Positions 41,388 through 61,000 are shown, counted from the stretch's first letter. The stretch is 64,000 nt of DNA from an uncultured Flavobacteriales bacterium (GCA_964595205.1 CAZQOQ010000015.1:281765-345764), one strand, 5' to 3'. The notes: a model not told the origin generated them from the letters alone. A program made the numbers and translations.

Positions 41388-41769
41388 TAAACTTTATTTT
41401 TAGCAGATAGTTACCCGTCCATCCGTAAAATGGCCGGCTAAGATATAATTTTTAGCTTTTTTAAAAGGGATTTTAAGTGTAAAGTATCGCTGAATAAATT
41501 TATTTCTGGCTTCACAATTCCGGTGATGATGCATCCCCGGGAATTTCTTACGTCAGGTTAAAATTTTTTGAATGGGGAGTATGTGCATTATTGGTGTTTT
41601 TTAATATGATTTCATGATTTTTTTGAGACAGATCATAGCATCATTTAATCAATTCTTACAAATGGACCTGATTGCATGAATTACCCCCCTGCCCTCTTGC
41701 TCCGGATATATTTTAGTGTGTTCAGTAATAGCTCTGGTCATCAACAGGAGTTATTCGAAAAACACAAGT

Positions 41770-44700
41770 ATGAAACACTTTATAACAGGGAAATGGATTT
41801 TTGCCATCGTGTTGGTCGCCGGGTTGATAGTTACGGGCAAAACCTTTGCAAGCCATACGATGGGAGCCGATCTCACGTATGAAAACCTGGGTGGCAATAC
41901 CTATAAGATTACAGTTTCTTTTTATCGCGATTGTATTGGAATTCCGGCGCCGGCAAATCCGTTCGTCACCATCAACTCTTCGTCCTGTGGACAGAGTATG
42001 GGTGTTACCTGTTATCCGCGTCCCGGAACAGGACAGGAAGTGACACCGAGCTGTTCAAGTTCGGTTACTACATGTAATGGTGGTTCATTTACCGGAATCC
42101 AGGAATGGATTTATGACGGTATCGTAACACTTCCGGCCCAGTGCACTGACTGGATCTTTGGTTATTCATTGTGTTGCAGGAATGCAGCGATTACAACCAT
42201 TCATAATCCGAGTACAAACACATTCTATATATATGCCACATTAAATAATACGATCAGCCCGCAGAATTCATCACCGACGTTTTCAAACAAGCCGGTGCCG
42301 TTTCTTTGTCTCGGACAGCAGTTTTGCTTTAATCATGGTGCATATGATGCTGATGGAGATTCATTGGTATATTCTCTCATTACTCCGAAACAGACGATTT
42401 CCACGGATGTGAATTACAGACCGGGTTACAGTGCCTCAAACCCGTTGATCTCATCTCCTGCGACATCATTTAATACTTCCACGGGAGATATCTGCCTCAC
42501 ACCGCAGGCCCTCGAAGTAACGGTAATGGCAGTGTTGGTAAGCGAATACAGAAATGGTGTATTGATTGGAAGCGTTGAAAGAGATTTGCAGTTGACGGTG
42601 ATGAATTGTGCAAACAATCTTCCGTCACTCACCGGAATAAACGGCACAAATAATTTCAGCGTGACAGTTTGTGCAAATCAACAGACCTGCTTTGATATAT
42701 TTTCAAACGATCCGGATGGCGGCCAGCAACTGGAAGTTGATTGGAACTATGGAATTGCCGGCGGTAATTTCACCACTTCTTCAGCGTCGCACCCGGTTGG
42801 TACATTCTGCTGGACTCCATCATCCTCCGACATTGGCAATTCGTATACGTTCACGGCAACTGTAACAGATGATGCCTGTCCGTATAACGGAAGCCAGACT
42901 TACGCTTATACCGTGAATGTAATCGGCATGGATGTAGATGCCGGACCAGACCAGGCAATCGCCTGCAGCGACCTGGCAACAATTACCGCGGTGGCGTCTG
43001 GAGGGTCGGGTACATATACTTATTTATGGAATACGGGCTCAACCATGCAATCAATAACAGTTGGAGCCGGAACTTATGTTGTCACCGCGAGTGATGGTAC
43101 CTGTACAGCCACGGACACCGTAGTTATATCGATGCCATTCATACCGGTTGCAGCATTTACGAACAGCGCACCGGATTGCATTAACTCCCCGATCAGTTTT
43201 ACCGATCAATCGACCACGCCGGGAGGAAGTCTCAATTATTGGTTTTGGTTGTTTGATGATGGGGATTCTTCAAATCTTCAGAATCCTGTTCATCAGTTTC
43301 CGGGACCCGGCACATATAACGTTACACTGATTATTGAGAATACACTCGGATGTCGGGACACGGTGGTAAATCCGCTGGTCATACTGGCATACCCTTCGGC
43401 GGATTTTAACTGGGGACTGACCTGTCAGAACATAGGTGTCACATTCACAGACCAGACAGCACCATCGCCTGCATATTGGACATGGTCATTTGGCGATAGT
43501 ACATTTTCAAATCAACAGTATCCGACACACACTTATGCAGACACAGGTACGTATACTGTTACGTTAATTGCCGGGAACAGTATTGGATGTTATGACACGA
43601 TCAGTTACGACATCGTTATACTTCCATTACCGGTTATCAGTGCAAGTGCAGATCAGACTATTTGCGAAGGTGATTCGGTAACTCTCACTGCAACGGGAGG
43701 AATAAATTATTCATGGACGCCGGGAGGTTATTTTTCCCAGACAATTACAATTGCACCGACCGGTACCACGACTTTAATTGTGACAGGAATGGATGGAGTG
43801 GGTTGTTATACAACTGACACAGTTGATGTGATTGTAAAACCATTACCTCTTGTGAATGCCGGTGCGGACCAGGGGATTTGTTCCGGGAATTCTGCAACAC
43901 TTACCGCAACAGGAGCGATTTCTTATACATGGACGCCTGGAGGTTCAATTTCATCTTCCATTTCCGTGAATCCGGCAACCGCTGCCACTTATACGGTAAC
44001 AGGAACCGGAGCCAATGGTTGCACGGCCTCCGATGAAATAAACATTACCGTCAATCCGATGCCGGTAGCCGATGCTGGTCCGGATCTAATTGCCTGCAAT
44101 GCATCAAATACAATTCTTACTGCATCAGGCGGTACCAGTTATTTGTGGCTGCCGGGCGGCATGACAGGTTCTTCCATTACAGTAAACCCCGCGTCTACCC
44201 AGACTTATGAAGTAACCGTAACGGACGGTAATGGTTGTTCGGCCACTGATTCAGTTACGGTGACGATCAATCAGCGACCGACGGTTTCACTGCAATCATT
44301 CTTCCTCTGTGCAGGTTCAACCGCCACACTGGATGCCGGCAATGCGGGTTCAGATTTCTTATGGAGTAATGGGGACACTACGCAGGTAATCCAGATAAAT
44401 TCAGGCGGCGCCTATTCAGTAACAGTTACAAATAGTTTGGGATGTTCATCTACTGCTTCCTGTACTGTTACCTATGCAGCTACGATAACCATTAATCTTG
44501 GCAATGTGGCATTCTGCCAGGGAGACTCCGTATTGTTGGATGCCGGATATTCCGGAATGACCTATGCATGGACACCTGGTGGTGAGACATCCCAGACGAT
44601 ATACATTAAGAACACAGGATCCTATGGCGTAACGGTTACAGATACTTTGGGCTGCAGCGGGTCAATCAATATTTCAGCTGTTGTTAATCCGCTTCCGGTG

Positions 44701-47700
44701 CCCGATTTCAGTTCGGTTCCGACCTGCCAGGGAAACCAGATGAGTTTTACGGATGGTTCATCCGTATCGTCCGGTACAATCAGCGCATGGTCATGGAATT
44801 TTGGTGATGGAGGAACATCGACCGTGAGAAATCCGAATCACCTCTTTCCTTCAACCGGAAATTATAATGTAACGTTAACTTCCACTACCAATGCAGGATG
44901 TACGTCAACGGTTTCTCACCAGGCAACGGTAAATCCATTACCGGTTGCAGCATTTAATTTCAGCAACAGTTGTCTTGGGAATGCGGTTAATTTCACCGAT
45001 CAGTCGACAGTTTCATCAGGGAACATTGTAGATTACAACTGGAGTTTTGGAGATGCCTCTACTTCTACCCAACAGAACCCTTCGCATTTGTATGCTTCTC
45101 CGGGGAACTATTCAGTGAATCTGACAGTGACGACTGCCGGCGGATGTACACAAACGGTTAATCATACCGTTACTATTCATCCAAAGCCATCGGCTAATTT
45201 TTCGGTTCCTCAGGTTTGTCATGGTAACGCTTCTGTTTTCACCAACAGTTCCTCCATAACTACAGGAAGCATATCCGGAATTTCATGGGACTTCAACGAC
45301 ACGTACACATCAACCCAGAATTCTCCATCGCATACTTATGCTTCATCCGGCACTTACTCAGTGCGGCTGATTGTGACTTCTTCATTCGGATGTTCGGATA
45401 CGATTACAAAATCCGCTGATGTGAATGCTCGTCCGGTCGCAAATGCGGGCGCGAATACATCACTCTGTTCAGGAAACTCTGTTACTCTCTCCGCAACAGG
45501 TGGCGGCACATACAGCTGGACACCGGGCGGTGCAGTTACACAATCCATTTCCGTGTCGCCGGTTTCGAATGCGACTTATACAGTTACCGTCACAAACGCC
45601 AGTGGCTGTACATCGACAGATGATGTGGCGATAGTAGTTAACCCGATTCCGAATGCACAAGCGGGAGCTGACAGGTCGATTTGCAATGGAAGTTCTGTCG
45701 GACTTACCGGAGCGGGCGGCATTAGCTATCTATGGTCGCCGGGAGGAATGACAACAAGCGCCGTTACCGTTAATCCAAATTCGACAACCAGTTATATACT
45801 TACGGTAACGGATGCGAATGGCTGTACGGATAAGGATACGGTCGCCGTTACGGTTTATAATCTGCCGGTGGTTACGGCAACGCCGGACAACAGTATTTGC
45901 AATGGTTCAACGACATCGCTTGTTGCATCAGGAGCTACTTCCTATGTCTGGAGTCCTGTCGGTCTCACAACATCTTCCATACTCGTCACTCCATCTGTAA
46001 CATCAACATATACAGTGGTAGGAACAGGACCGGGTGGTTGTACCTCTTCCGATGTGGTTACGATCACGGTGAATACAGCTCCGGTCGTAAACATTCCTAC
46101 TGCATTTCTGTGTGATGGATTTTCGGTTACCCTGGATGCAGGAAATGCCGGCAGTACATTCGACTGGTCAACCGGCGAAACGACACAAACGATTTCTGTG
46201 ACAGATTCCGGAACTTATTCTGTGATTGTTACAGGTTCTAATGGTTGTCCGGCAATGGGAAATGTTTCGGTTCTGACGGTAGGGACATTTAATACGACAC
46301 CGGTAAATGCTTCAGTCTGCAGCGGGCAGAGTGTGAACCTGGACGCAGGAAATACCGGCAGCACGTATGCATGGTCGACCGGACAAACCACGCAGGTTAT
46401 TTCTGTGAATGCGGCCGGAAATTATACCGTTACGATCACCGACATTTATGGATGCACAGGAACCTTACAGAATTTCGTGAGCCTGGATCCATTACCCGTA
46501 ACCGACTTTACACTCAATTCAGTCTGCCTGGGACTCCCGGTAAGTTTCAATAACACTTCCTCGATCAGCAGCGGTTCCATTTCAAGTGTATTGTGGAATT
46601 TCGGTGATGGTGGCAGCTCAACGAATTCAAACATTCCGTATGTATATGCTTCTTATGGAAACTACACGGTCACTCTAACGGCGACGAGCGACAGGGGCTG
46701 TACTTCAACTGCCACAAAACAGGCTACAGTAAACCCACTGCCGGTTGCAGACTTCAGCACCAGCGTGACCTGTGAAAACGTTGCGGCAGCATTTACAAAC
46801 CAATCGACAATACCTGCGGGTACAATAACTCAATGGGACTGGGATTTTGGCGACGGAACTTTTTCCTCGTCGACAACGCCAACACATGATTATCCGTCTG
46901 CAGGAACATTTACAACATCACTCATTGCAACGAGCAATTTCGGTTGTACGGATACGATAAGCAGGAGTGTGACCATACTTGGACTTCCGGTTGCGTCGTT
47001 TTCGGCGGCAAATGGCTGTGCACAGAGTAATATCAGCCTTGCGAATACTTCGAGTCCGAATGGCACAACGATTTCATCGTATCAATGGAATTTCGGAAAT
47101 GGCAATACATCTACGGCAGCTCAGCCTGTGGTTCAATTCAGTAATCCGGGCACCTTCCAGGTAAGTTTAGTGGCCATATCAACTTCAGGATGCAGGGATA
47201 CAGTCGTTGCTCCGGTCACGGTTTATCCTCTGCCAGTTGCGGCATTCTCTGCTACACCGGTTTGTGTGAACACCTCTGCATCTTACCTGAATAATTCCTC
47301 CATCTCCAGTGGCTCCATTCAAAATTACTACTGGTTGCTTGGCGACAATTCGACTTCTTCGCTCACAAATCCGAATCATACTTATTCGGCAGACGGGAAT
47401 TTCACTGTGAGTCTGATAGCCACGTCTTCCTTTGGGTGCATTGATACGTCTGTTCAGAGCCTGACAATTTATCCGCAGCCGCAGGTGAATGTGACAGGTA
47501 CCGATGTTTGTTATGGGAACAATACAAGCTTTGCGAATAACTCGACAATAGCAAACGGAAGCATTGCGTCCTGGTTATGGATTTTCAACGATGGCAGCAT
47601 TTCAAATCAAAACACGCCTGTCCACCAGTTTGGTTCAACAGGTTCGTATAACGTAAGCGTAACGGCAATATCCGATCACGGATGCCAGTCGAACGGAAGC

Positions 47701-49476
47701 ACGAATGTTAATGTATTCCCTAACCCTGTTGCTGCCTTTGTCACCGCCAATGTTTGCTTCGGAAGCAACACACAGTTGGTAAATCAGTCGTCAGTTACGG
47801 GTGGAGGAAGTCTTTCCAGTTACTGGACATTCAGCGACGGAGGAAGTTCGACAAGCAGCAATCCCGTTCACCTGTTTCCGTCAGCAGGAAATCATAATAT
47901 CACTCTCCAGGTAGTATCACAAAACGGCTGTACGGGCCAGGTTACGAAAGGTCTTGACGTCTATCATTTGCCTGTGGCGAGATTCTCGGCGCCTGATAAT
48001 TGCTCCGGCACCCCGGTCTCATTCACCAATCAGTCCACTTCACAGGACGGACACATCACATCATTCCTTTGGGGATTCGGTGATGGTACGTTTTCATTCG
48101 ACGAGAATCCCGTACATCAATATCCAGATTCGGGTCAGTACAACGTAGATCTCATCACGATAACTTCTTACGGCTGCGCGGGTGAATACAACGATTCAGT
48201 TTCCGTATTCCCGAACCCTGTTGCAAGAATTCAGGCAAACAGCGCTTGCGTGGGTTCGCCGATTTCCTTTGTGGGAACAACTAACCTCAACGGTGGAGTA
48301 AGTTATGCCTGGACCATCAGTAATTCATTTACGACCAGTCAGCCTTCGTTCAGTTATACTTTTAATGCTCCGGGAAACTATAATATTTCACTTGTAGCCA
48401 CTACATCTAACGGCTGCAGCGGAACGCAGTCAGACATGGTTAGCGTTTATCCAAACCCAGTACCTTCGTTCTCGAGTGACGAAGTATGTTACGCCTCACG
48501 CACGACATTCAGCAACCTATCTACGATTCCATCGGGTACAGTGAGCAGCTACTCCTGGAATTTCGGTGATAACCAGCAATCGTCACAAAGTAATCCAACG
48601 CACCTGTATGCTTCGGCAGGAACATATAATGCGGTATTGGCCGTTACTTCCGACAGGGGTTGCACATCCAATATTACCAGGCAGGTTGTAGTACATCCTC
48701 CGCCTGTAGTTAATTTCTCATCAGGAGCTCAGGGCTGTAAACCAGTAAGTGCGACGTTTACAGAAAATTCTTCCATCTCATCAGGAACCATTACGGGCAG
48801 GTTATGGAATTTTGGAGATGGAGATGTATCAACAGATCTGAATCCGACACATGTTTATGATCAAAGCGGTAGTTATGATGTCACGCTCACGGTCGTATCC
48901 GATTTCGGTTGCCAGGCTTCCGCACATCAGTCGGGTATCATCAGGGTGTTCCCGGATCCGGTAGCAGACTTCAGCGCAGACCCAACGGTTGTTGACATAG
49001 AAATGCCGGTCGTGCATTTCCAAAATGAATCGAGCGGATACTCTACCTACCAGTGGGTCTTTGGAGATGGCACTTTTACAACCAGCGAATTAAATCCTAC
49101 ACATACGTTTTCAGATACCGGTACATACCAGGCATTGCTCATCACGATGAATAATTTCGGATGCATGGATTCTATCCTTAAGACGATCGAGGTCAGGCTT
49201 CATTCAACATTGTTCATTGCCAATTGTTTTACACCTAATGGCGATGGTAACAACGACGACTTCAGGCCTTATTATACCAACATGAAAGAAATTAAAGTAT
49301 GGATTTTTGACCGCTGGGGAAAACTGCTTACCTCATGGGATAGCCTGGAAGGATCATGGGATGGTTTCTACCAGGGCAGAAAGTGTCAGTCCGATACCTA
49401 TGTTTATAAAATTGCCGGAACAGGCCTTGACGGTAAACAATCCGAATGGGTCGGGCATGTAAGCATTGTCTACTAA
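41770..49476 (+). CDS. giant (~2570 aa) secreted repeat protein: N-terminal Cys-rich unique domain, ~11 Cys-bracketed Ig-like repeats, ~20 PKD repeats, C-terminal T9SS type-B sorting domain (gliding-motility-associated CTD). Putative adhesin/SprB-like surface protein
   Basis: Signal peptide MKHFITGKWIFAIVLVAGLIVTGKTFA (ATG at 41770; ORF track start is 41716). PKD signatures 'WxFGDG..S...NPxHxY...G.Y.V.L' repeated. Ig-like units 'C.G.S.TL.A.GG..Y.W.PGG...TYTVT.TD.NGC...D.V.V'. The C-terminal 'CFTPNGDGNNDDFRPYY...YVYKI' is the TIGR04131-type CTD. Confidence 0.85.
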   Translation: MKHFITGKWIFAIVLVAGLIVTGKTFASHTMGADLTYENLGGNTYKITVSFYRDCIGIPAPANPFVTINSSSCGQSMGVTCYPRPGTGQEVTPSCSSSVTTCNGGSFTGIQEWIYDGIVTLPAQCTDWIFGYSLCCRNAAITTIHNPSTNTFYIYATLNNTISPQNSSPTFSNKPVPFLCLGQQFCFNHGAYDADGDSLVYSLITPKQTISTDVNYRPGYSASNPLISSPATSFNTSTGDICLTPQALEVTVMAVLVSEYRNGVLIGSVERDLQLTVMNCANNLPSLTGINGTNNFSVTVCANQQTCFDIFSNDPDGGQQLEVDWNYGIAGGNFTTSSASHPVGTFCWTPSSSDIGNSYTFTATVTDDACPYNGSQTYAYTVNVIGMDVDAGPDQAIACSDLATITAVASGGSGTYTYLWNTGSTMQSITVGAGTYVVTASDGTCTATDTVVISMPFIPVAAFTNSAPDCINSPISFTDQSTTPGGSLNYWFWLFDDGDSSNLQNPVHQFPGPGTYNVTLIIENTLGCRDTVVNPLVILAYPSADFNWGLTCQNIGVTFTDQTAPSPAYWTWSFGDSTFSNQQYPTHTYADTGTYTVTLIAGNSIGCYDTISYDIVILPLPVISASADQTICEGDSVTLTATGGINYSWTPGGYFSQTITIAPTGTTTLIVTGMDGVGCYTTDTVDVIVKPLPLVNAGADQGICSGNSATLTATGAISYTWTPGGSISSSISVNPATAATYTVTGTGANGCTASDEINITVNPMPVADAGPDLIACNASNTILTASGGTSYLWLPGGMTGSSITVNPASTQTYEVTVTDGNGCSATDSVTVTINQRPTVSLQSFFLCAGSTATLDAGNAGSDFLWSNGDTTQVIQINSGGAYSVTVTNSLGCSSTASCTVTYAATITINLGNVAFCQGDSVLLDAGYSGMTYAWTPGGETSQTIYIKNTGSYGVTVTDTLGCSGSINISAVVNPLPVPDFSSVPTCQGNQMSFTDGSSVSSGTISAWSWNFGDGGTSTVRNPNHLFPSTGNYNVTLTSTTNAGCTSTVSHQATVNPLPVAAFNFSNSCLGNAVNFTDQSTVSSGNIVDYNWSFGDASTSTQQNPSHLYASPGNYSVNLTVTTAGGCTQTVNHTVTIHPKPSANFSVPQVCHGNASVFTNSSSITTGSISGISWDFNDTYTSTQNSPSHTYASSGTYSVRLIVTSSFGCSDTITKSADVNARPVANAGANTSLCSGNSVTLSATGGGTYSWTPGGAVTQSISVSPVSNATYTVTVTNASGCTSTDDVAIVVNPIPNAQAGADRSICNGSSVGLTGAGGISYLWSPGGMTTSAVTVNPNSTTSYILTVTDANGCTDKDTVAVTVYNLPVVTATPDNSICNGSTTSLVASGATSYVWSPVGLTTSSILVTPSVTSTYTVVGTGPGGCTSSDVVTITVNTAPVVNIPTAFLCDGFSVTLDAGNAGSTFDWSTGETTQTISVTDSGTYSVIVTGSNGCPAMGNVSVLTVGTFNTTPVNASVCSGQSVNLDAGNTGSTYAWSTGQTTQVISVNAAGNYTVTITDIYGCTGTLQNFVSLDPLPVTDFTLNSVCLGLPVSFNNTSSISSGSISSVLWNFGDGGSSTNSNIPYVYASYGNYTVTLTATSDRGCTSTATKQATVNPLPVADFSTSVTCENVAAAFTNQSTIPAGTITQWDWDFGDGTFSSSTTPTHDYPSAGTFTTSLIATSNFGCTDTISRSVTILGLPVASFSAANGCAQSNISLANTSSPNGTTISSYQWNFGNGNTSTAAQPVVQFSNPGTFQVSLVAISTSGCRDTVVAPVTVYPLPVAAFSATPVCVNTSASYLNNSSISSGSIQNYYWLLGDNSTSSLTNPNHTYSADGNFTVSLIATSSFGCIDTSVQSLTIYPQPQVNVTGTDVCYGNNTSFANNSTIANGSIASWLWIFNDGSISNQNTPVHQFGSTGSYNVSVTAISDHGCQSNGSTNVNVFPNPVAAFVTANVCFGSNTQLVNQSSVTGGGSLSSYWTFSDGGSSTSSNPVHLFPSAGNHNITLQVVSQNGCTGQVTKGLDVYHLPVARFSAPDNCSGTPVSFTNQSTSQDGHITSFLWGFGDGTFSFDENPVHQYPDSGQYNVDLITITSYGCAGEYNDSVSVFPNPVARIQANSACVGSPISFVGTTNLNGGVSYAWTISNSFTTSQPSFSYTFNAPGNYNISLVATTSNGCSGTQSDMVSVYPNPVPSFSSDEVCYASRTTFSNLSTIPSGTVSSYSWNFGDNQQSSQSNPTHLYASAGTYNAVLAVTSDRGCTSNITRQVVVHPPPVVNFSSGAQGCKPVSATFTENSSISSGTITGRLWNFGDGDVSTDLNPTHVYDQSGSYDVTLTVVSDFGCQASAHQSGIIRVFPDPVADFSADPTVVDIEMPVVHFQNESSGYSTYQWVFGDGTFTTSELNPTHTFSDTGTYQALLITMNNFGCMDSILKTIEVRLHSTLFIANCFTPNGDGNNDDFRPYYTNMKEIKVWIFDRWGKLLTSWDSLEGSWDGFYQGRKCQSDTYVYKIAGTGLDGKQSEWVGHVSIVY

Positions 49477-52542: not shown

Positions 52543-52650
52543 GTTTATGGTGCCGGATCATTGTGAACATTTTTGTTTGAAAAGTAAATGATTCAAATAA
52601 TCGCTGCAGTTTTGAATTGTTTAACTTTGTGAAATAGCCTTTTAACTCAT

Positions 52651-55356
52651 ATGAAATTAAAGATTGGAATCATATTCGGGGGATTCTCACGCGAACGTGA
52701 AATTTCGTTTGCCGGAGGAAGAACCGTTTATGATAACCTGAATAAGACACTCTTCGAAGCAATACCTGTTTTTGTCGATAGCTTCGGGAATTTCATTCTG
52801 CTCGACTGGCAATTCATCTACAAGGGAAGTATTCGTGATTTCTATCCTCCGGTATCTTCAATTCCGCCTTCAAAAGGAAATTACCAGGTGTATGCCGAAT
52901 CGCTTGGGGATCTTTCAATGAAGGAACAGGAAGCGTTGATCCGAAGTATCGGTCGTGTGATTCTGCCGGCAGAACTCAACCAGTGTTTTGATTTCGCCTT
53001 TCTGTGTCTTCATGGTCCTTTCGGTGAGGATGGCAGAATCCAGGGCATGCTCGAATATTATGGAATCCCCTATTCCGGCTCAGGCATACTTTCTTCAGCG
53101 ATCGGCATCAACAAATCGGTGCAGAAGAAACTGATGAGAAATTCCGGTTTCGACGGACCGGAATATTTATCGCTGAAAAAGAAAAACTGGAATGAATCGG
53201 ACAGGAAAATAATTTTCAAAAACATCAGGGAAGATATCGGCTTCCCGTGTGTAATAAAGCCGGCTCACCAGGGTTCATCCATCGGCGTGAGTGTGGTGGT
53301 AAAAGATGATGAGGTCGAAATCGGAAGAGCCATCAATCATGCATTCTTTATCAGGGAGATTCAAATAAGCGAATGGAATTCGCTGAACGAAAACATGAGA
53401 CTGTCGCTGATCCGTTCGGTCTCAGATATACGCGAGGGACTTGGTTTGCCGCTGATGATGACGGTTTCCGGCCGATCCGAAAGAATATTTCATCCCGATG
53501 CATTGTCAGGGAGAATAGATTCCGCCTTCAGTAACGGGAATAAATCAATACACCTTGAGGCATGCGATGGCGAGAGTGAAATACTCATTGAGCAGTTCAT
53601 CGAGGGAAAGGAATTTTCCTGCATCGTAATACGGAATGAAGATGATCGTCCCGTTGCTTTGCCTCCCACCGAAATCAGGAAAGGAAAGGAACTCTTCGAT
53701 TATCGTTCCAAATATCTCCCCGGATTATCGAGGAAGATCACTCCTATTGAATTATCTTATGAACAGATCCAGCTGATCAGGCAGGAATGTGAGCGACTGT
53801 TTCTCGAGTTGAACTTTAACGTGTATGCTCGTATTGATGGTTTTGTAACGAACGACAACCGGATTTTCCTGAATGATCCGAACACGACCTCGGGGATGAT
53901 GCCTTCTTCTTTCTTCTTTCACCAGGCCGCTGAGATCGGACTCAATCCCTCTCAGTTTCTTACCTATATCATCCGTACTTCCTTTACTGAGCGCATGCAT
54001 GACATGCCGGGCAAATCAGGACTCGGAGAGTTACTGAAGAAACTCGATGAAGAAATCATTTCGATGAGAAATAATCCCGGGCAGAAGACGAGAGTTGCAG
54101 TTATTCTTGGCGGCTATTCGTCCGAGAGACATATTTCCGTCGAGAGTGGCAGAAACGTCTACGAAAAGCTTTCTTCCTCGGATAAATATGCGCCTGTTCC
54201 GGTTTTTCTGACGGGTTCTGACGGCAATCACCGGCTTTTCCAGATACCGGTTAATCTCATGCTGAAGGATAATGCCGACGACATCAGGGAGAAAATCATG
54301 CATTTTTCCGTTCACGAAGTGGTGAAGGAAATCATGATGCTCTGCGAAAAGATCACCGATAAATATACTTCCGCACAGGATGTACTGCAGCCAAAGGAAA
54401 TTTTCTACGAAACCCTCTCTGAAATTGCAGATGTCGCTTTCATAGCCTTGCATGGCAGGCCCGGCGAAGACGGAGAAGTTCAGCGGCAGCTTGAAAAGGC
54501 CGGCATTCCTTATAATGGCTCTGGTGTTGATTCATCCAGGATAACTATAAATAAATTTGAGACAAACGAGATCCTCCGGAATCATGTTTTCAAGGTAGCC
54601 TCGCACAGGCTTGTGAGTTACAGCGACTGGAAAGGAAAGAAAGATGTGATCGTAACTGAAATCAAAAGAGACTTTAAGTTCCCGTTAATTGCAAAGCCCG
54701 TAGATGACGGTTGCAGCAGCGCAGTTAAGAAGATTAAAAACATGGAAGAACTGTCGGCCTTCGCAGATGCGATATTCCGGCAGTCAGAAGAACTCTCTCC
54801 GAAAGAAGCAGCCATTCTCAATTTAAAGCCGAAGGAAGAATTTCCGCAAAAGGTAATGTTTCTTATCGAAGAACTCATCGAACCGGAGGGTGCTGCACAT
54901 TTTCTGGAAATCACAGGCGGTCTGCTCACCAAAATGGATGAACAGGGAAACATACGATATGAAGTTTTCGAAGCCTCCGAGGCTCTGTCCGGCGGAGACG
55001 TGCTGTCGCTTGAGGAGAAATTTCTCGCCGGCGAGGGGCAGAATATCACTCCTGCCCGGTATGCGGCCGATGCCGCTGAGAGGCAAAGAATATCCGAAAT
55101 CGTAAAGGATGAATTCAAACGTGCTGCCATGCTTTTGAATGTGGAAGGTTATGCGAGAATTGATGCCTTTGTGAGAGTATTCGGTGACGGCAGAGTCGAG
55201 ACAATTTTCATAGAGGTAAATTCGTTACCGGGAATGACGCCGGCAACATGCATTTTCCACCAGACTGCAATTGCCGGTTACAAGCCGTATGATTTCATCG
55301 ACCGGATTTTAAAATATGGAATTCAGAAAATGAAACGGCCTGTTAAAATACATTAG
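52651..55356 (+). CDS. tandem-duplicated D-alanine--D-alanine ligase-family (ATP-grasp) protein: two complete Ddl-like modules fused in one 901-aa polypeptide
   Basis: Each half (aa ~1-470 and ~480-901) has the Ddl N-domain (IGIIFGGFSREREISFAGGR / VAVILGGYSSERHISVESGR), 'LHGxxGEDGxxQ..LE..GIPY.GSG', the ATP-grasp 'PxIxKPxxxGSS' and the C-terminal 'ARIDxFV....E.N..PGMT..S'. Neighbours are a PASTA protein and rluD. Confidence 0.7.
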   Translation: MKLKIGIIFGGFSREREISFAGGRTVYDNLNKTLFEAIPVFVDSFGNFILLDWQFIYKGSIRDFYPPVSSIPPSKGNYQVYAESLGDLSMKEQEALIRSIGRVILPAELNQCFDFAFLCLHGPFGEDGRIQGMLEYYGIPYSGSGILSSAIGINKSVQKKLMRNSGFDGPEYLSLKKKNWNESDRKIIFKNIREDIGFPCVIKPAHQGSSIGVSVVVKDDEVEIGRAINHAFFIREIQISEWNSLNENMRLSLIRSVSDIREGLGLPLMMTVSGRSERIFHPDALSGRIDSAFSNGNKSIHLEACDGESEILIEQFIEGKEFSCIVIRNEDDRPVALPPTEIRKGKELFDYRSKYLPGLSRKITPIELSYEQIQLIRQECERLFLELNFNVYARIDGFVTNDNRIFLNDPNTTSGMMPSSFFFHQAAEIGLNPSQFLTYIIRTSFTERMHDMPGKSGLGELLKKLDEEIISMRNNPGQKTRVAVILGGYSSERHISVESGRNVYEKLSSSDKYAPVPVFLTGSDGNHRLFQIPVNLMLKDNADDIREKIMHFSVHEVVKEIMMLCEKITDKYTSAQDVLQPKEIFYETLSEIADVAFIALHGRPGEDGEVQRQLEKAGIPYNGSGVDSSRITINKFETNEILRNHVFKVASHRLVSYSDWKGKKDVIVTEIKRDFKFPLIAKPVDDGCSSAVKKIKNMEELSAFADAIFRQSEELSPKEAAILNLKPKEEFPQKVMFLIEELIEPEGAAHFLEITGGLLTKMDEQGNIRYEVFEASEALSGGDVLSLEEKFLAGEGQNITPARYAADAAERQRISEIVKDEFKRAAMLLNVEGYARIDAFVRVFGDGRVETIFIEVNSLPGMTPATCIFHQTAIAGYKPYDFIDRILKYGIQKMKRPVKIH

Positions 55357-55360
55357 AAAT

Positions 55361-56122
55361 ATGTCGTCTAAACTGTTTGAATTTTTGACCAGCCGTGTAT
55401 TCTTCAGGAATGTTGCCATTCTTATAATTGCAATGATCATCGGTTTCTTCTCTCTGAATGCCATGCTCAATAACTACACGCACCATGGGGAAAGCATTTC
55501 TGTGCCTGATCTGACCGGACTGGAGATTTCGAAACTCGACAGCATTTTAGTTACTCATGGCTTCCTGTACAAAGTAATTGATTCATTGTATGACGGAGAG
55601 AGGATTCCCGGAACGGTCATCGACCAGGATCCGGCGCCGAAGAGTAAAGTAAAAGAGAACCGTACCATTTACCTTACGATTAATGCGGTCAATCCACCTG
55701 ATGTTAAGATGCCGGATCTTGTTGATGTGTCTTTCAGGCAGGCACAGGCTATGCTGCAGTCATACGGACTGGTTACCGGTGATGTGGTTTATCGTTCAGA
55801 TCTAGCCAAAAATGCAGTGCTCGAACAACTATATAAAAACCGCACCATCAAGCCCGGAACAATGATTCCAAAAGGCGCCGTCATCGATCTCGTTTTAGGC
55901 GACGGCCTCGGAGACATTGAAGTCGAAGTTCCGGATCTGACCGGTATGACACTTGAAGAAGCAAAGACCAAACTCGTACATTCATCACTGGCATTGGGTA
56001 TCGTAGAATACGAGGATGAATCGGATGAGAAATCCTCTGCACGGGTTTACAGGCAGAATCCTGATGCGGGCAGTGGTATTACGCTCAAACAGGGTTCGGG
56101 TGTGGATGTATTCCTGCGTTGA
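55361..56122 (+). CDS. PASTA domain-containing membrane protein (TM + 3 PASTA repeats, no kinase/PBP domain)
   Basis: TM 'VAILIIAMIIGFFSL', then three ~65-aa units ('SVPDLTGLEISKLDSIL...', 'KMPDLVDVSFRQAQAMLQSYGL...', 'EVPDLTGMTLEEAKTKLVHSSL...'). Confidence 0.75.
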   Translation: MSSKLFEFLTSRVFFRNVAILIIAMIIGFFSLNAMLNNYTHHGESISVPDLTGLEISKLDSILVTHGFLYKVIDSLYDGERIPGTVIDQDPAPKSKVKENRTIYLTINAVNPPDVKMPDLVDVSFRQAQAMLQSYGLVTGDVVYRSDLAKNAVLEQLYKNRTIKPGTMIPKGAVIDLVLGDGLGDIEVEVPDLTGMTLEEAKTKLVHSSLALGIVEYEDESDEKSSARVYRQNPDAGSGITLKQGSGVDVFLR

Positions 56123-56171
56123 GATTCCCGTTTATATGCCGGCCAATATTCGTACTTTTGCCCTCCCTCCT

Positions 56172-58025
56172 ATGAAGACAAGCAAAATTCTCTTTCTGAT
56201 TTTAGTACTGACGGTTTCTTTTTCGGACATAAAAAGCCAGGAGACGATTATTCCCCTGAATAACAATCCCGCGCTCATGAATAAAGCGAAGTCGAAGAAG
56301 ATGATGAGAATGATGTCTGCGGTTGACGATACGATTCCCATTCCTTTCCGTGATGATTTTTCACGCCCGGGTGTTTATCCTGACGAGACTTTGTGGCTGG
56401 ACAGCGGTGTTTTTATAAACAATAATTATCCTGATTTCCCGGTTACGATCGGAGTTGCAACCTTTGACGGTTTGAATTACATGGGATGCCCCTATCAGCC
56501 GGCATCAACACAGGATTCGGTTGCGGATGTCCTCACTTCGCATTGTATCGATCTGGCACTTGCATCAACGGATACTTCCGTATGGTTTAGTTTTTTCTAT
56601 CAGCCGCAGGGTATGGGCGATGCGCCTGAATCAGGCGACTCGCTTGTACTTCAGTTTAAGGACTCAGGCGGGACATGGAAAAATGTCTGGGCAGTGGATG
56701 GCCGGGAAGATTCGGCTTTTCAAAGAGTGAATATCAGAGTTACCGGAGCTGAATATCTGTTCAAAGGATTTCAATTCAGATTTTACAACATTGCAACCGT
56801 AAACGGAAACCGTGATCACTGGCATCTCGATTATGTTTGGCTTGACAAGAACAGATTCGAGAACGACGGCCTCGAAGATTTTTCACTGATCAAACCAATT
56901 GGATCATTGCTTACAGAATTTACTGCAATGCCCTATTCGCATTATAAGGCCCTGGGTACGCCTCCGGTTGCAGGAACATTGGTGCCCGATATGTCCGATT
57001 CCGTTTACGTCTTGAATTATGGTCCCGCCAGCTTCACGCAGTTCATAGACATTATACAAGTCGGCCAGCCGGTACCGGACTACCATGTTTCCACCGGAAT
57101 ATTCAACGGCAATCCTCTTTCGTATGTAAACAATACACTTCCGCTGAATTATTATTTCCCGGCATTGCCCGGCGACAGTGTCGATTACCTTGTTAAGTCA
57201 TTTCTTGATGATCCGGTAGCTCGATTGAATAAATACAACGATACGAGTTATTACTATCAGCATTTTTATAATTATTATTCTTATGACGATGGCAGCGCTG
57301 AAGTCGGGTATGGAATTACAGGAAACGTGGATGTGTCGATGGCTTATTTATTCAATGTGAAAGTCGCCGATACGCTGAGAGGGGTACAGATTTATTTTAA
57401 TCCCACCGGACTGGATGTTACGAATAAACTATTTCAACTTACGGTCTGGAGCGATATCAATCTGACTACGAATCAATCCATCGAAATGTACAGGATGATC
57501 AACCAGAAACCCGGCGAATGCGACAGCCTGAACGGGTTCAAGACATATTTGTTTGACACAACACTAGTGGTGGGGCCGGGAAATATATGGGTTGGAATGA
57601 TACAGAACGAGCCCCAGGCACTCTATGGTGTGGGACTCGACAGGAATACGGACTCCCGCACGAAGATGTATTATCACATCGATGGTATATGGAGCGGCTC
57701 GAGTATTTTTGGTTCATGGATGATTCGTCCGCTGTTTGGAAAGAAAATTCCTGTTGTTTCTGTTGAGGAAAATGAAAACCTGGTATCAGATTTTTCTGTT
57801 TTTCCAAACCCGGCAAACGATCATGCACACATACGGTTCAACAATCGTGGTGACAGAAACTACACCTGCCAGATTTTCGATTGCATAGGTTCGCTTTTGC
57901 GTGAAGAATTGTTATCACCGGATGGAAATATTGATATTTCAGCATTGAGCAAGGGCATTTATATTGTCAGAATATATGCTCCAGGCGACCGTACCGGGAA
58001 AGTACAGAAGCTGATCATTCAATAG
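56172..58025 (+). CDS. secreted protein of unknown function with T9SS type-A C-terminal sorting domain. Start chosen at the ATG at 56172; the ORF track's 56016 overlaps the PASTA gene
   Basis: Signal peptide MKTSKILFLILVLTVSFSDIKSQ. CTD 'FSVFPNPANDHAHIRF...GIYIVRIYAPGDRTGKVQKLIIQ'. Confidence 0.65.
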   Translation: MKTSKILFLILVLTVSFSDIKSQETIIPLNNNPALMNKAKSKKMMRMMSAVDDTIPIPFRDDFSRPGVYPDETLWLDSGVFINNNYPDFPVTIGVATFDGLNYMGCPYQPASTQDSVADVLTSHCIDLALASTDTSVWFSFFYQPQGMGDAPESGDSLVLQFKDSGGTWKNVWAVDGREDSAFQRVNIRVTGAEYLFKGFQFRFYNIATVNGNRDHWHLDYVWLDKNRFENDGLEDFSLIKPIGSLLTEFTAMPYSHYKALGTPPVAGTLVPDMSDSVYVLNYGPASFTQFIDIIQVGQPVPDYHVSTGIFNGNPLSYVNNTLPLNYYFPALPGDSVDYLVKSFLDDPVARLNKYNDTSYYYQHFYNYYSYDDGSAEVGYGITGNVDVSMAYLFNVKVADTLRGVQIYFNPTGLDVTNKLFQLTVWSDINLTTNQSIEMYRMINQKPGECDSLNGFKTYLFDTTLVVGPGNIWVGMIQNEPQALYGVGLDRNTDSRTKMYYHIDGIWSGSSIFGSWMIRPLFGKKIPVVSVEENENLVSDFSVFPNPANDHAHIRFNNRGDRNYTCQIFDCIGSLLREELLSPDGNIDISALSKGIYIVRIYAPGDRTGKVQKLIIQ

Positions 58026-58087: not shown

Positions 58088-59122
58088 ATGAATACCGATG
58101 AGTTAGAAGCATCCGAACAGGACGAGTTGTATGAGCATCACCGGTTCATCATCGAAAACGGCGTGACTCCCATAAGGATCGACAAGTTTTTAATTAACCG
58201 GATGCCGAATGTGAGCCGAAACAGGTTGCAGAATGCCTGCGAAGCCGGCAATATACTTGTCAACGGAAAAGAAGTTAAGTCGAGCTATAAGGTAAAGCCA
58301 AAGGATCAGATTCAGATCGTATTGCCTGAACCGGTGCGTGAAAAGGAATTGATCCCACAGGATATTCCGCTCGATATTGTGTACGAAGATGATGACATTA
58401 TTATCGTCAACAAACCGGCGGGTTTGGTGGTGCATCCGGCATTTGGAAATTATTCCGGCACACTCATGAATGGCCTGCTCTATCACTTTCAGAAGTTACC
58501 GGTTAGTAAGGGAAACATGGATCGCCCGGGACTTGTTCACAGGATTGACAAGAACACATCCGGTTTGCTGGTGATTGCGAGGACAGACATTGCAATGGTG
58601 CACCTGGCGAAGGAATTTTTCAACCGAACGATCGACAGGAAGTATGTGGCACTCGTGTGGGGCGATTTTAAGGAAGACGAAGGAACGATTACCGGTCATG
58701 TCGGAAGAAATCTCAAGGACAGGAAGATCATGGATGTTTTTCCGGGCGGCGAACATGGTAAACACGCTGTGACACATTATAAAGTTCTTGAGCGATTCGG
58801 TTATGTCACGCTAATTGAATGTAAACTTGAGACGGGTCGTACACACCAGATCCGTGTTCATATGAAGTATGCGGGCCATCCGCTGTTCAACGATGAGACC
58901 TATGGGGGAAATAAAATTCTGAAAGGCACAACGTTTACCAAATACAGGCAGTTTATTGAAAATTGTTTTGAAATTTTTCCACGGCATGCGCTTCATGCGA
59001 AGACGCTGGGATTCATTCATCCTGTTACGGGTAAGAAAGTATTTTTCGAGTCGCCGCTTCCTGAGGATTTTACCAGGCTGTTGGAAAAATGGCGCAGCTA
59101 TGCGAAAAATAAGGAAGCGTGA
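58088..59122 (+). CDS. rluD: 23S rRNA pseudouridine synthase RluD (RluA family)
   Basis: S4 domain 'IRIDKFLINRMPNVSRNRLQ', catalytic 'HRIDKNTSGLLVIA', 'RTHQIRVH'. Confidence 0.85.
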   Translation: MNTDELEASEQDELYEHHRFIIENGVTPIRIDKFLINRMPNVSRNRLQNACEAGNILVNGKEVKSSYKVKPKDQIQIVLPEPVREKELIPQDIPLDIVYEDDDIIIVNKPAGLVVHPAFGNYSGTLMNGLLYHFQKLPVSKGNMDRPGLVHRIDKNTSGLLVIARTDIAMVHLAKEFFNRTIDRKYVALVWGDFKEDEGTITGHVGRNLKDRKIMDVFPGGEHGKHAVTHYKVLERFGYVTLIECKLETGRTHQIRVHMKYAGHPLFNDETYGGNKILKGTTFTKYRQFIENCFEIFPRHALHAKTLGFIHPVTGKKVFFESPLPEDFTRLLEKWRSYAKNKEA

Positions 59123-59137: not shown

Positions 59138-61000
59138 CTAGTCCTTCTTCTGTAAAATCAACGGAATGTTTCTTACCACCTGGCCGGACTTTTTGTCGAC
59201 TACTTTCAAATGATAAAAGCCGCTAGCATATTCATTCATTGCAAGGTTTAAGTCAGCTGCAGTCACCGGAACAGATATAACTTCTTTTCCAAGCTGATCA
59301 TTCAATTCCACCAGGAAATTTTCTGTCGAAAGATTATCATTAAAATGAATAGAGACAATCGACTCTACGGGATTCGGGTAAGCATTTATTAATGTAACGT
59401 ACCGGTTCTCTTCAATGCCATTCACGGAAAGTGAAACATCAAACGTATCGCACAGATTGCAGCCGTTTTGATCCGAAATGCAAAGACTGTAGTTGCCGAC
59501 CGGAATATTAAACCGGTCTTCTGAATTATAACCGTCCATCCACGAAAAAGTATAAGGAGAAGTTCCGCCTGTAATGCTAAGATTTATTGCGCCGTCGTTG
59601 CATCCGATGCAACTGACATTATTGATGATGGCAGTGTCTATGCTTATGTCGCAGTTTATTTTATTGTAGCGAACGATAAATGCATCATACATTAAGGAGC
59701 CGTTTACATTGACGCCATCGAAGTCGATATGATCCCAAAATTCCCCGCTGAAGAATAAATTGCCATAGGCATCAGATCCTGATCCGTGTCCGCGATCATG
59801 ATCGGGTCCCCCGAATGCTTTTATAAAGCGGAAATTACCGGAAGAGTCATAACTTGAAAAAAATGCATCTTCCTCACCATTGGAAGAAACTATTACTGTA
59901 TCGAATGTTGCATCATCCATGAAAGTTCCGCCGACGAATACATTTCCAAATAAGTCTGCAGTGATCCTGTTTCCGAAATCGATATTGTTTCCTCCTCCAC
60001 TCCTCACCCAGAGATTATTTCCGTTGTCGTCATAGGCTGCTACGAACATATCGGAACTGCCGTCTGAACTTACGGAATTAGATCCAAAAGAAGCATGACC
60101 TCTGAATTCACCGGTGCAGACAATTCTGCCGTTTGAGTTGATTGCAACATCCTGGCCGATGTCATCGCCCGAGCCTCCGCCGGAAACAGCCCATTGCAAT
60201 GATCCAAGCGTATCATATTTAGCCAGGAAGAAATCCTTGTCGCCGTCTGAATCAAGGGTAACAGAAGAATTAAAACGCGCCGAACCTTCGAAGCTTCCCG
60301 TCAGGTACACATACTCTCCCAGAACTGCCAGGCCAAATCCCTCATCAGAATCGGAGCCACCGATCTGTTTGTGCCACATTTTATCGCCATCCGGATTGAA
60401 CTTGATGAGAATGATATCCTCAGAGCCTCGCGAAGTAAAAAGTGTTGATCCGTTATAATATGCCTTTGCACGTGTTGTTCCTGCCGCATACACATTTCCA
60501 TTTGCATCACATGCGAGTGCATAACCGATGGTGCTTCCGGAATTTGTGCCGATGGATTTCACCCATAAAGAATGACCGGTAGAATCATATTTTGCAATGA
60601 ACATGTTGTTGGAACCCTGAGCGGTTTTTGATATACCTCCGAAGTCAGAAACCGTCTCGAACTCACCTGTAATGAAAACACTGCCTTCGTGGTCGACGTC
60701 TATCGAATAACCAATGTCGCCGTCAGTACCGCCGGCATGTTTTGCCCAGATCAGATTTCCGAGGGAATCATAGCGGGCAAGAAAAATATCATGACTTCCG
60801 TTGGAGGAAAGATGATATCCATCGAAGGATGCGGTATATTCTATCTGACCGGTTGTATAAAAATCGCCGGAGGGCTTGATCAGCAGGTCGTGGCAATCAT
60901 CATAGCCATCACTGATGATGGTATTGATGCGGGTTGGCGCCTGTCCTTTGAAATCTAAAAATGAAAAAACTAAAATGAGTGTGAGTAGTGTTCTGATCAT
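59138..61000 (-). CDS. secreted beta-propeller (SBBP-repeat) protein with T9SS type-A C-terminal sorting domain
   Basis: Signal peptide, >8 'G..DD.G..I..D..GN.Y..G.F' propeller blades, CTD 'LINAYPNPVESIVSIHFND...GFYHLKVVDKKSGQVVRNIPLILQ'. Confidence 0.7.
   Translation of the reverse strand: MIRTLLTLILVFSFLDFKGQAPTRINTIISDGYDDCHDLLIKPSGDFYTTGQIEYTASFDGYHLSSNGSHDIFLARYDSLGNLIWAKHAGGTDGDIGYSIDVDHEGSVFITGEFETVSDFGGISKTAQGSNNMFIAKYDSTGHSLWVKSIGTNSGSTIGYALACDANGNVYAAGTTRAKAYYNGSTLFTSRGSEDIILIKFNPDGDKMWHKQIGGSDSDEGFGLAVLGEYVYLTGSFEGSARFNSSVTLDSDGDKDFFLAKYDTLGSLQWAVSGGGSGDDIGQDVAINSNGRIVCTGEFRGHASFGSNSVSSDGSSDMFVAAYDDNGNNLWVRSGGGNNIDFGNRITADLFGNVFVGGTFMDDATFDTVIVSSNGEEDAFFSSYDSSGNFRFIKAFGGPDHDRGHGSGSDAYGNLFFSGEFWDHIDFDGVNVNGSLMYDAFIVRYNKINCDISIDTAIINNVSCIGCNDGAINLSITGGTSPYTFSWMDGYNSEDRFNIPVGNYSLCISDQNGCNLCDTFDVSLSVNGIEENRYVTLINAYPNPVESIVSIHFNDNLSTENFLVELNDQLGKEVISVPVTAADLNLAMNEYASGFYHLKVVDKKSGQVVRNIPLILQKKD

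Follow-up and report, generated by a model that had tools for sequence, protein, structure and literature searches.

The region analysed here is a stretch of 64,000 nucleotides (nt) from an uncultured Flavobacteriales bacterium (GCA_964595205.1, CAZQOQ010000015.1:281765-345764), which we will call the window. On its plus strand, in positions 52651–55356, there is a complete gene of the Ddl family (D-Ala-D-Ala ligases) with two modules, defined from the list of open reading frames (ORFs) and from Pfam and NCBIfam models. The ORF starts with ATG, ends with TAG (55354–55356) and codes for a protein of 901 amino acids (aa). Pfam detects the domain Dala_Dala_lig_N twice and Dala_Dala_lig_C in each half: PF01820 and PF07478 score 85 and 128 bits in the N-terminal half, 80 and 68 bits in the C-terminal half, all above the gathering scores. 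The whole protein reaches 377.5 bits with TIGR01205, the NCBIfam model of D-alanine--D-alanine ligase, above its cut-off of 245.65. The two halves (aa 1–475 and 476–901) are about 25–26% identical (E=2e-36). For either of them the best NCBIfam matches are Ddl families, and the sequence matches in the PDB are without exception D-Ala-D-Ala or D-Ala-D-Lac ligases of 300–390 aa. The original prediction, made from the sequence alone, had described a 901-aa ORF with two Ddl-like modules. This is what we find, and neither half has its best match in another ATP-grasp family.

The fused double Ddl is genuine. An identical protein (P0001) is present on two independent assemblies, and at least 120 protein-database clusters, with 61–100% identity, have a length of 892–932 aa each. 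We have also studied a set of related loci, the best 80 from a scan of one genome per species, which were read together with flanks of ±10 kb. In all 80 the N-module lies directly upstream of the C-module; 74 of them have an uninterrupted and complete ORF of 850–1000 aa, while the remaining six run off the ends of their contigs. The linker between the modules (aa 451–477, positions 54001–54081, plus strand) was delimited from conservation, ORF continuity and an AlphaFold2 prediction. Its sequence is variable (conservation 0.47), and helices are predicted in residues 433–451 and 458–474. A stop codon between the modules is found neither here nor in any of the 74 complete ORFs. An assembly or frameshift artefact that joins adjacent paralogous genes can thus be given practically no weight. 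Nothing speaks in its favour, and it is opposed by the identical protein in two assemblies, by the 74 continuous ORFs, which include cultured isolates and closed genomes, by the clusters of about 900 aa and by the high confidence of the predicted linker helices.

The residues of the two modules were assigned by alignment with E. coli DdlB, in a reference sequence whose numbering matches the published catalytic positions. Residue conservation was evaluated in an alignment of 120 close homologues. The N-module (aa 1–450, positions 52651–54000, plus strand) has a Ddl N-domain followed by an ATP-grasp domain. Its key residues are E15, H121, K155, K203, S209 (S150 in DdlB), S210, E314, K354, Y355 (Y216), R394, D396, D409 (E270), N411, S420 (S281) and F421 (L282). 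All these positions, including those that deviate from DdlB, are invariant in the 120 homologues. The equivalents of K97, K144, E180, K215, R255, D257 and N272 are kept, and E270 is changed conservatively to Asp409. The substrate residues are also maintained: the triad E15, S209 and Y355 and the carboxylate-binding position S420. In the motif ...FLNDPNTTSGMM an Asp occupies the E270 slot (FLNDPN), and SGMM is found in place of PGMT. With this Asp in place of Glu270, the second ligand of Mg2+, binding of the metal is probably retained. The omega-loop of the module (aa 345–362, ...ELFDYRSKYLPG..., positions 53683–53736, plus strand, from the alignment) bears K354-Y355. It is the only stretch of the N-module with low confidence in the AlphaFold2 model, as expected of a mobile lid loop. 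Because the canonical residues for D-Ala and D-Ala as substrates are present, the N-module is most likely the site which forms D-Ala-D-Ala.

The C-module (aa 478–901, positions 54082–55353, plus strand) has the same two domains and belongs to a distinct subfamily, as found from alignments and searches with hidden Markov models (HMMs). Its key residues are E492, H601, K635, K682, C688 (S150 in DdlB), S689, A691 (G153), E740, K790, F791 (Y216), R836, D838, E855, N857, T866 (S281) and C867 (L282). Again all of them are invariant in the 120 homologues, deviations included. The set for ATP, Mg2+ and phosphoryl transfer (K97, K144, E180, K215, R255, D257, E270 and N272 in DdlB) is complete. In the substrate set E492 is kept, and C688, F791 and T866 replace Ser150, Tyr216 and Ser281. 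These replacements can be recognised in short motifs: KPVDDGCS with Cys at S150, EEKF with Phe at Y216, and Thr at S281. The block which contains the omega-loop (aa 776–800, SEALSGGDVLSLEEKFLAGEGQNIT, positions 54976–55050, plus strand) came out of the conservation profile and the motif scan as the diagnostic motif of the family. With a conservation of 0.96 it is the highest 25-aa block of the protein; the mean values are 0.76 for the C-module versus 0.72 for the N-module. Such conservation is purifying selection on what the alignment indicates as the active-site lid.

Probably the C-module, too, works as a ligase, and its kinetics or its preference for the nucleophile would be altered. It should be active because the residues for nucleotide, Mg2+ and phosphoryl transfer are kept, together with the Glu for the first amino acid. 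Its preference should be altered because the hydroxyls of Ser150 and Tyr216 are lost (Cys, Phe) and the second subsite is changed (Thr281, Cys/Val282). Such a pattern suggests a site that is not dead, in which the preference for the incoming nucleophile, or the pH or kinetic profile towards it, has changed. The statement that both halves retain the full Ddl motif set is only approximately right and has to be corrected for the N-module (Asp270, SGMM) and for the C-module (Cys150, Phe216, Thr281). That the two active sites have diverged was anticipated correctly: the deviations are fixed in 120 of 120 homologues and hold in most of the distant representatives.

Both modules have an insert of about 45–48 aa in their N-terminal domain, in residues 47–94 and 525–574. 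The central (lid) domain of the N-module has a further insertion of 73 aa (aa 234–306, positions 53350–53568, plus strand), mapped by comparison with DdlB and in the AlphaFold2 model, where it appears as a folded subdomain of helices and strands with a predicted local distance difference test score (pLDDT) of about 88–94. The corresponding domain of the C-module has inserts of only about 20 and 9 aa with respect to DdlB. A central insertion of 60–90 aa in each module had been proposed; it is present in the N-module and not in the C-module. The AlphaFold2 model was calculated from an alignment of 54 sequences, which span the classes of 900 and 800 aa that we describe below. It has a mean pLDDT of 86.4 and a predicted template modelling score (pTM) of 0.86. 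Only the two omega-loops (345–362 and 781–795) are disordered, as expected for the lids of ATP-grasp enzymes in the apo form, and the inserts are predicted to fold into helices and strands. The two modules are arranged in a defined way in the model, as its high pTM implies, which fits a fixed assembly of both. A Foldseek search of the PDB gives exclusively Ddl chains with a single module (target template modelling score about 0.8, query score about 0.3), so that no tandem Ddl structure has been solved. Canonical Ddl enzymes are homodimers of identical sites; the fusion probably fixes this usual dimer as a covalent heterodimer.

Downstream of the tandem gene there is a gene for a membrane-anchored protein of 253 aa with three PASTA repeats (positions 55361–56122, plus strand; Pfam PASTA, 109 bits). 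It has about 17 cytoplasmic residues, a transmembrane (TM) helix in aa 18–36 according to hydropathy, and then the three repeats. As is apparent in the junction sequence, this gene starts 4 nt past the stop codon of ddl. The two genes are probably co-transcribed, since the gap is so short and there is no terminator-like site in it; scans for sigma-70 promoters and terminators gave only background levels. A PASTA gene is found directly downstream in 47 of the 80 related loci. The motif which precedes the membrane helix (FFRN, FLRN, FLKN or FWKN) is common to this partner and to the proteins in which tandem Ddl and PASTA are fused, so that in the fusions orthologues of the two neighbouring genes have been joined. 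It is simplest to suppose that the ligase is tethered at the membrane by the PASTA protein, or receives from it a signal on the state of the wall.

Relatives of the tandem protein are widespread in Bacteria. The scan of one genome per species was made with two peptide motifs of the C-module, such as [VI]LS[LV]EEKF[LQ]. It shows that they are encoded in at least 579 species genomes. Among the carriers there are cultured Cytophagales (Pontibacter, Hymenobacter, Rufibacter, Solirubrum, Rhodocytophaga and Sporocytophaga), as well as closed metagenome-assembled genomes (MAGs). The closest genomes among the matches listed are MAGs of Bacteroidota, with an identity of up to 73% in the C-module. When the C-terminal half alone was compared exhaustively with 1.84 billion representatives by HMMER, 266 proteins were obtained at E<1e-30; in the best 150 of these 266, nearly all matches are the C-terminal module of a protein with two modules. 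We compared 113 two-module representatives which are 30–50% identical to the query, and about 100 of them have the same two signatures: E-H-K-K/R-S-S-E-K-Y-R-D-D-N-S-F in the N-module and E-H-K-K-C-S-x-K-F-R-D-E-N-T-(C/V/A/I) in the C-module. Both signatures are present in relatives from Proteobacteria, Verrucomicrobia and the Candidate Phyla Radiation (CPR).

The family can be divided into several classes. The protein of the window belongs to the class of about 860–930 aa, with a long N-module and a C-module. Other proteins combine a compact N-module with a compact C-module (about 700–750 aa) or with a long one (about 780–850 aa). The named members of this last class belong to Candidatus Peregrinibacteria, to Kaiserbacteria and other Patescibacteria, and to MAGs of Alphaproteobacteria, Dadabacteria and Verrucomicrobia. 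The remaining classes have additional domains: GNAT plus the tandem (about 990 aa), the tandem with intact signatures plus MurF (P0240, 1262 aa), and the tandem plus one TM helix and PASTA repeats (about 1100–1285 aa). In P0240 the C-terminal part is a full MurF, with 323 bits in TIGR01143 versus a cut-off of 288.6. The 12 representatives fused to PASTA are of two kinds: three are catalytically intact (P0123, P0124 and P0129), and in nine most catalytic residues of both modules are lost (P0169, P0172, P0186, P0189, P0199, P0205, P0206, P0221 and P0229). The latter have about 1100–1240 aa; in P0186, for example, the 15 key positions are occupied by DPRRAGEQQKDDDAF and DLRMYPQQYRENQQC. From their residues these nine proteins look like pseudo-enzymes derived as sensors or scaffolds.

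Fusion of two Ddl modules is not an unprecedented architecture. The plant DDL of Arabidopsis, Physcomitrella and rice (AtDDL; Physcomitrium PpDDL, BAE45860; OsDDL, BAF22630), which also has two complete Ddl modules per chain, was published as "a fusion of two putative DDL enzymes" (PMC9954125). Published work assigns to it the supply of D-Ala-D-Ala to (plastid) peptidoglycan (PMC9954125, PMC9434261). Moss depends in vivo on the two-domain DDL for this supply (PMC9954125, PMC7432710), and our searches gave no comparable report for any bacterium. In the moss ddl knockout the dimerisation of D-alanine is lost and macrochloroplasts are formed (PMC9954125). Dowson et al. found that the UDP-MurNAc-pentapeptide of moss ends in ordinary D-Ala-D-Ala, and that the moss Ddl is closest to homologues of the Fibrobacteres-Chlorobi-Bacteroidetes group (PMC9434261). 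Which half of the Arabidopsis enzyme makes D-Ala-D-Ala has been stated as an open question (PMC9954125).

One of the relatives of a divergent family member turned out to be a plant DDL, P0475 from Vanilla planifolia (HPP92_013424), with 956 aa, on a contig of 43.9 Mb. It has an extension similar to a transit peptide, a compact N-module and a long C-module. The N-module has AKPTRAGSSIG, NYRRKYL and FARIDG...TDINLISGMEQTSF, with TDIN and ...TSF; the C-module has KPARDGCSTG, ILSLEEKFQGGTGINLTPPP and FSRIDA...IEVNTVPGMTPSTV, with LSLEEKF, IEVN and PSTV. The omega-loop motif of the C-module in plant DDL is ILSLEEKFQGGTGINLTPP. P0475 carries both module signatures exactly, with the same substitutions as the 901-aa protein and in the same order: S150, Y216 and S281 with Asp270 and Phe282 in the N-module, Cys150, Phe216 and Thr281 with Glu270 in the C-module. 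The modules are orthologous in pairs, N-module with N-module and C-module with C-module. With the C-module HMM the C region reaches 141 bits, versus about 77 with the N-module HMM; for the N region the values are about 114 with the N-module HMM and about 48 with the C-module HMM. The long insert in the N-domain of the C-module is also shared. The plant protein differs by its N-terminal extension of about 85 aa and by its compact N-module, in which the 73-aa central insert is absent, as it is in the class of about 800 aa; there is no PASTA partner in plants, and the two C-modules are only about 29% identical.

The separated modules of 23 tandem proteins were used to build a neighbour-joining tree with DdlB as the root. 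In it the C-modules fall without exception into one clade, with a bootstrap of 85 of 100, and the N-modules likewise into another, with 84 of 100. The two clades have parallel internal topologies across Bacteroidota, CPR, Alphaproteobacteria, Verrucomicrobia and the plant, therefore duplication and fusion took place once, long ago. The tree indicates a single ancient event and none in this particular genome; an internal duplication of local origin, as the wording of the original prediction implied, does not agree with clades that are separate across phyla. In the same tree the plant sequence clusters with the bacterial class of about 800 aa, not with the Bacteroidota class of about 900 aa, which supports a non-cyanobacterial origin of plant DDL.

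Comparison with other known systems places the protein more precisely. Each module has the same three-domain fold as E. coli DdlB (PDB 2DLN/1IOV) and DdlA-type enzymes (PDB 3I12), with a target template modelling score of about 0.8. It also shares with them the Pfam domains and the ATP-grasp catalytic set, and the N-module keeps E15-S150-Y216, K215, R255 and S281. Canonical Ddl has a single module, whereas our protein has two per chain, is about 29% identical to DdlB, has extra inserts and differs at Asp270 and Phe282 in the N-module and at Cys150, Phe216, Thr281 and Cys282 in the C-module. The Phe of the C-module omega-loop is shared with Leuconostoc LmDdl2 (PDB 1EHI) and with the Y216F mutant of DdlB (PDB 1IOW), and the C-module also lacks the hydroxyl of Ser150; Phe at Tyr216 and loss of that hydroxyl relax the selectivity for the nucleophile. 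The rest of the omega-loop (VLSLEEKFLAGEGQNITP) is unlike that of either protein and there is no context of resistance genes; 1EHI matches only the N-module region (E=1.7e-19), without a specific sequence affinity.

Fusions of enzymes for peptidoglycan precursors are also found in the chimeras of the Mur pathway, such as MurC-Ddl of Chlamydia and MurE-MurF, and relatives of the 901-aa protein are fused to MurF. The protein itself differs from them: it has no Mur_ligase domain in Pfam, and its fusion is a homotypic one, Ddl with Ddl. Among the natural chimeras of the Mur pathway, a published survey names MurC-Ddl, and no Ddl-Ddl, Ddl-MurF or Ddl-PASTA (PMC10214165). The partner protein and the relatives fused to PASTA have the same plan as PBP2x and kinases of the PknB/StkP type, namely an enzyme in the cytoplasm, a single TM helix and PASTA repeats outside the membrane. 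Here, however, the cytoplasmic enzyme is a precursor ligase instead of a kinase or transpeptidase, and the two parts are separate genes in the window.

We propose, with a probability of about 0.68, that the protein is a bacterial member of the two-domain or plant-type DDL family. It would be a single cytoplasmic polypeptide with two ATP-grasp Ddl modules that derive from one ancient duplication and fusion, and it would make D-Ala-D-Ala for MurF. The N-module would be the canonical site for D-Ala and D-Ala, the C-module a second active ligase site with altered nucleophile preference or kinetics, and both together a covalent heterodimer which replaces the usual Ddl dimer. The membrane-anchored periplasmic PASTA protein, if it is co-expressed, would probably tether the enzyme or couple the synthesis of precursors to wall sites or wall states. 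The fusions of relatives to MurF and to TM-PASTA tie the enzyme to the supply of peptidoglycan precursors; together with the probable operon with the PASTA gene they agree with the role in precursor synthesis that had been predicted.

Several observations weigh against this proposal. When the halves are run singly, TIGR01205 gives 240.0 bits for the N-terminal half, just under the cut-off, and 144.0 for the C-terminal half, well under it. The Asp270 of the N-module is unusual among ATP-grasp enzymes and could lower its activity, in which case the roles of the two modules could be reversed. The PASTA gene is not downstream in a substantial minority of the related loci and in some it is clearly replaced by unrelated genes, so that coupling to PASTA is not obligatory. 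The literature which we consulted contains no enzymology of any bacterial member or of the separate plant halves. Finally, the search for a canonical ddl covered the window (tblastn with DdlB and both modules) and the ±10 kb flanks of the 80 related loci; no second ddl was found in either, and the housekeeping role is only putative.

The extent of this search bears on the idea that the tandem protein is an accessory paralogue, involved in D-Ala detoxification, envelope remodelling or stress, and that a canonical ddl of about 320 aa located elsewhere does the housekeeping. Many bacteria have two ddl genes (DdlA and DdlB), which counts for this idea, and the degenerate paralogues found in some lineages imply another Ddl in those genomes. 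On the other hand CPR bacteria have very small genomes, and the family is present in those labelled Peregrinibacteria and Kaiserbacteria, where redundancy is unlikely. A fusion with MurF also exists (P0240), and in moss the loss of the two-domain DDL blocks D-Ala dimerisation (PMC9954125). By analogy, the single gene of moss and the small genomes of the CPR carriers argue that the tandem enzyme can be the sole Ddl; an accessory role appears to us rather unlikely.

Other alternatives concern the C-module. As a ligase it might differ in specificity and make D-Ala-D-lactate, D-Ala-D-Ser or some other D-aminoacyl product; the protein would then be bifunctional, with D-Ala-D-Ala made by the N-module. 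In this direction point the Phe at Tyr216 and the loss of the Ser150 hydroxyl, both invariant in the C-module: the Y216F and S150A mutants of DdlB reportedly gain D-Ala-D-lactate synthetase activity (Park, Lin & Walsh 1996; Park & Walsh 1997), and the D-Ala-D-Lac ligase of Leuconostoc has a Phe in this position. The Y216F structure 1IOW is among the fold matches in the PDB, the smaller residue at 282 (Cys, Val or Ala) could enlarge the second subsite, and the strong conservation of the remodelled omega-loop argues for a specific function. Yet the whole protein does not come near the cut-off of any model of the Van, D-Ala-D-Lac or D-Ala-D-Ser type (VanG 258 vs 495, D_ala_D_lac 212 vs 550, D_ala_D_ser 203 vs 520, VanA 168 vs 775), and the halves score lower still. 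There is no vanH dehydrogenase, vanX dipeptidase or vanT racemase within ±10 kb. The hydroxyl of Thr281, for the carboxylate of the second substrate, and Glu15 are kept, so that D-Ala plus D-Ala is still compatible with the site. Moss, which belongs to the family with the same C-signature, accumulates precursors ending in D-Ala-D-Ala (PMC9434261). We consider a different specificity unlikely.

Even less probable, in our opinion, is that one of the modules, presumably the C-module, is catalytically silent and works as a structural or allosteric pseudo-enzyme half or as a docking site for PASTA. The Glu-Ser-Tyr triad is indeed broken in it, the C-terminal half alone remains far under the Ddl cut-offs, and the nine degenerate relatives fused to PASTA make a scaffold role without catalysis possible. 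But K97, K144, E180, K215, R255, D257, E270, N272 and E15 are invariant in the C-module, here and in about 100 diverse relatives, and a non-catalytic domain is not expected to retain them; its omega-loop is also the most conserved block of the protein. In Arabidopsis, T-DNA lines keep a transcript of only the C-terminal module along with the labelling by a D-Ala-D-Ala probe, which the authors take as a hint that this module may function (PMC9954125). The suggestion of one catalytic and one regulatory site is thus disfavoured.

With the C-module regarded as a probably active site, one may go a step further. We mention as a speculation, which we think is unlikely to be correct as a whole, that from Bacteroidota and CPR to land plants the C-module is a distinct second ligase, which makes or edits a product other than plain D-Ala-D-Ala (for example a depsipeptide or D-Ala-D-X) or is regulated differently, and that in Bacteroidota the whole enzyme is physically coupled through PASTA to the state of the periplasmic wall. 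If this were true, the cytoplasmic supply of precursors would be sensed as well as positioned from outside the membrane, and the dead tandem-Ddl-PASTA proteins would be derivatives acting purely as sensors or scaffolds.

Returning to the plant-type DDL proposal, the two-module architecture had been described before in plant DDL, and databases already contain the bacterial proteins under generic names. What is added here are the signatures specific for each module, the breadth of the family in Bacteria with its orthology to plants, and the fusions with MurF and PASTA, including catalytically dead derivatives. This links the poorly understood two-domain DDL of plants, which is kept even by angiosperms without most of the Mur genes, to a large bacterial family with some members in cultured genera (Pontibacter, Hymenobacter). 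The fixed asymmetry, Ser/Tyr/Ser with Asp270 in the N-module and Cys/Phe/Thr with Glu270 in the C-module, provides a precise hypothesis on the role of each one. The fusions suggest a possible control point, at which the synthesis of D-Ala-D-Ala can be connected with sensing of the wall and with the following step of the pathway. General searches of the literature, and a full-text search for the signature peptides, gave no specific discussion of bacterial tandem Ddl.

The surroundings of the gene are also of interest. A gene for a pseudouridine synthase of the rluD type (S4 and PseudoU_synth_2 domains; positions 58088–59122, plus strand) is a conserved neighbour outside the system: in 18 of the 80 related loci it is found about 2.7 kb downstream. 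The position of ddl next to a PASTA gene and rluD had been noted correctly. The canonical ddl of other Bacteroidota presumably has the same neighbours, a further point against an accessory role of the tandem protein. Between the PASTA gene and rluD there is an ORF for a protein sorted by the type IX secretion system (T9SS), in positions 56016–58025 (plus strand), which overlaps the PASTA gene by 107 nt; the public call of this gene starts at about 56106, which reduces the overlap to 17 nt. It seems to be conserved, because of the constant distance of about 2.7 kb to rluD in those 18 loci. Proteins with Por_Secre_tail are found at about 56106–58025 and 59138–61000, which fits an origin in Bacteroidota. 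Further upstream (41716–49476, plus strand) a giant ORF of 2586 aa has PKD-type repeats and a C-terminal region typical of cargo of gliding motility or type IX secretion. The genes found within ±10 kb code for a PKD adhesin, a peptidase S9, the PASTA protein, T9SS proteins, RluD, a radical SAM enzyme, a response regulator and a protein with TonB_C. The intergenic region of 108 nt upstream of ddl contains TAACTTTG in positions 52622–52629 (plus strand), 22 nt before the ATG, a candidate match to the -7 promoter element of Bacteroidota, which has the consensus TAnnTTTG.

Some members of the family have individual peculiarities. P0213 (987 aa) has a GNAT acetyltransferase domain (PF00583) added at the N-terminus of the tandem core, and P0466 (891 aa) has N-terminal helix-turn-helix domains (PF01381/PF13443) according to a precomputed Pfam list. 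P0175 (402 aa, with a Met start), P0168, P0171 and P0173 are apparently stand-alone proteins of the C-module type, which carry Cys150/Phe216 as their signature; split genes, fragments and genuine single-module forms are all conceivable. Two loci with a typical tandem ddl of the Bacteroidota type (L025 and L068) bear in their records the names 'Candidatus Saccharibacteria bacterium' and 'Synechococcus sp. UW140', probably through bin contamination or mislabelling. In the databases the members are called 'D-alanine--D-alanine ligase' or, in NCBI, 'hypothetical protein', plant and CPR members included; many are misnamed 'UDP-N-acetylmuramate--alanine ligase' by JGI, apparently through the MurC-Ddl fusions. 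No mur operon was found near the distant members which we inspected, on a contig of Peregrinibacteria and on another one of 6.1 Mb. The latter carries P0346, a tandem ddl of the class of about 800 aa, and about 2 kb downstream of it there is a gene of the FemAB family (L084:12460-13551), related to the peptidoglycan interpeptide bridge.

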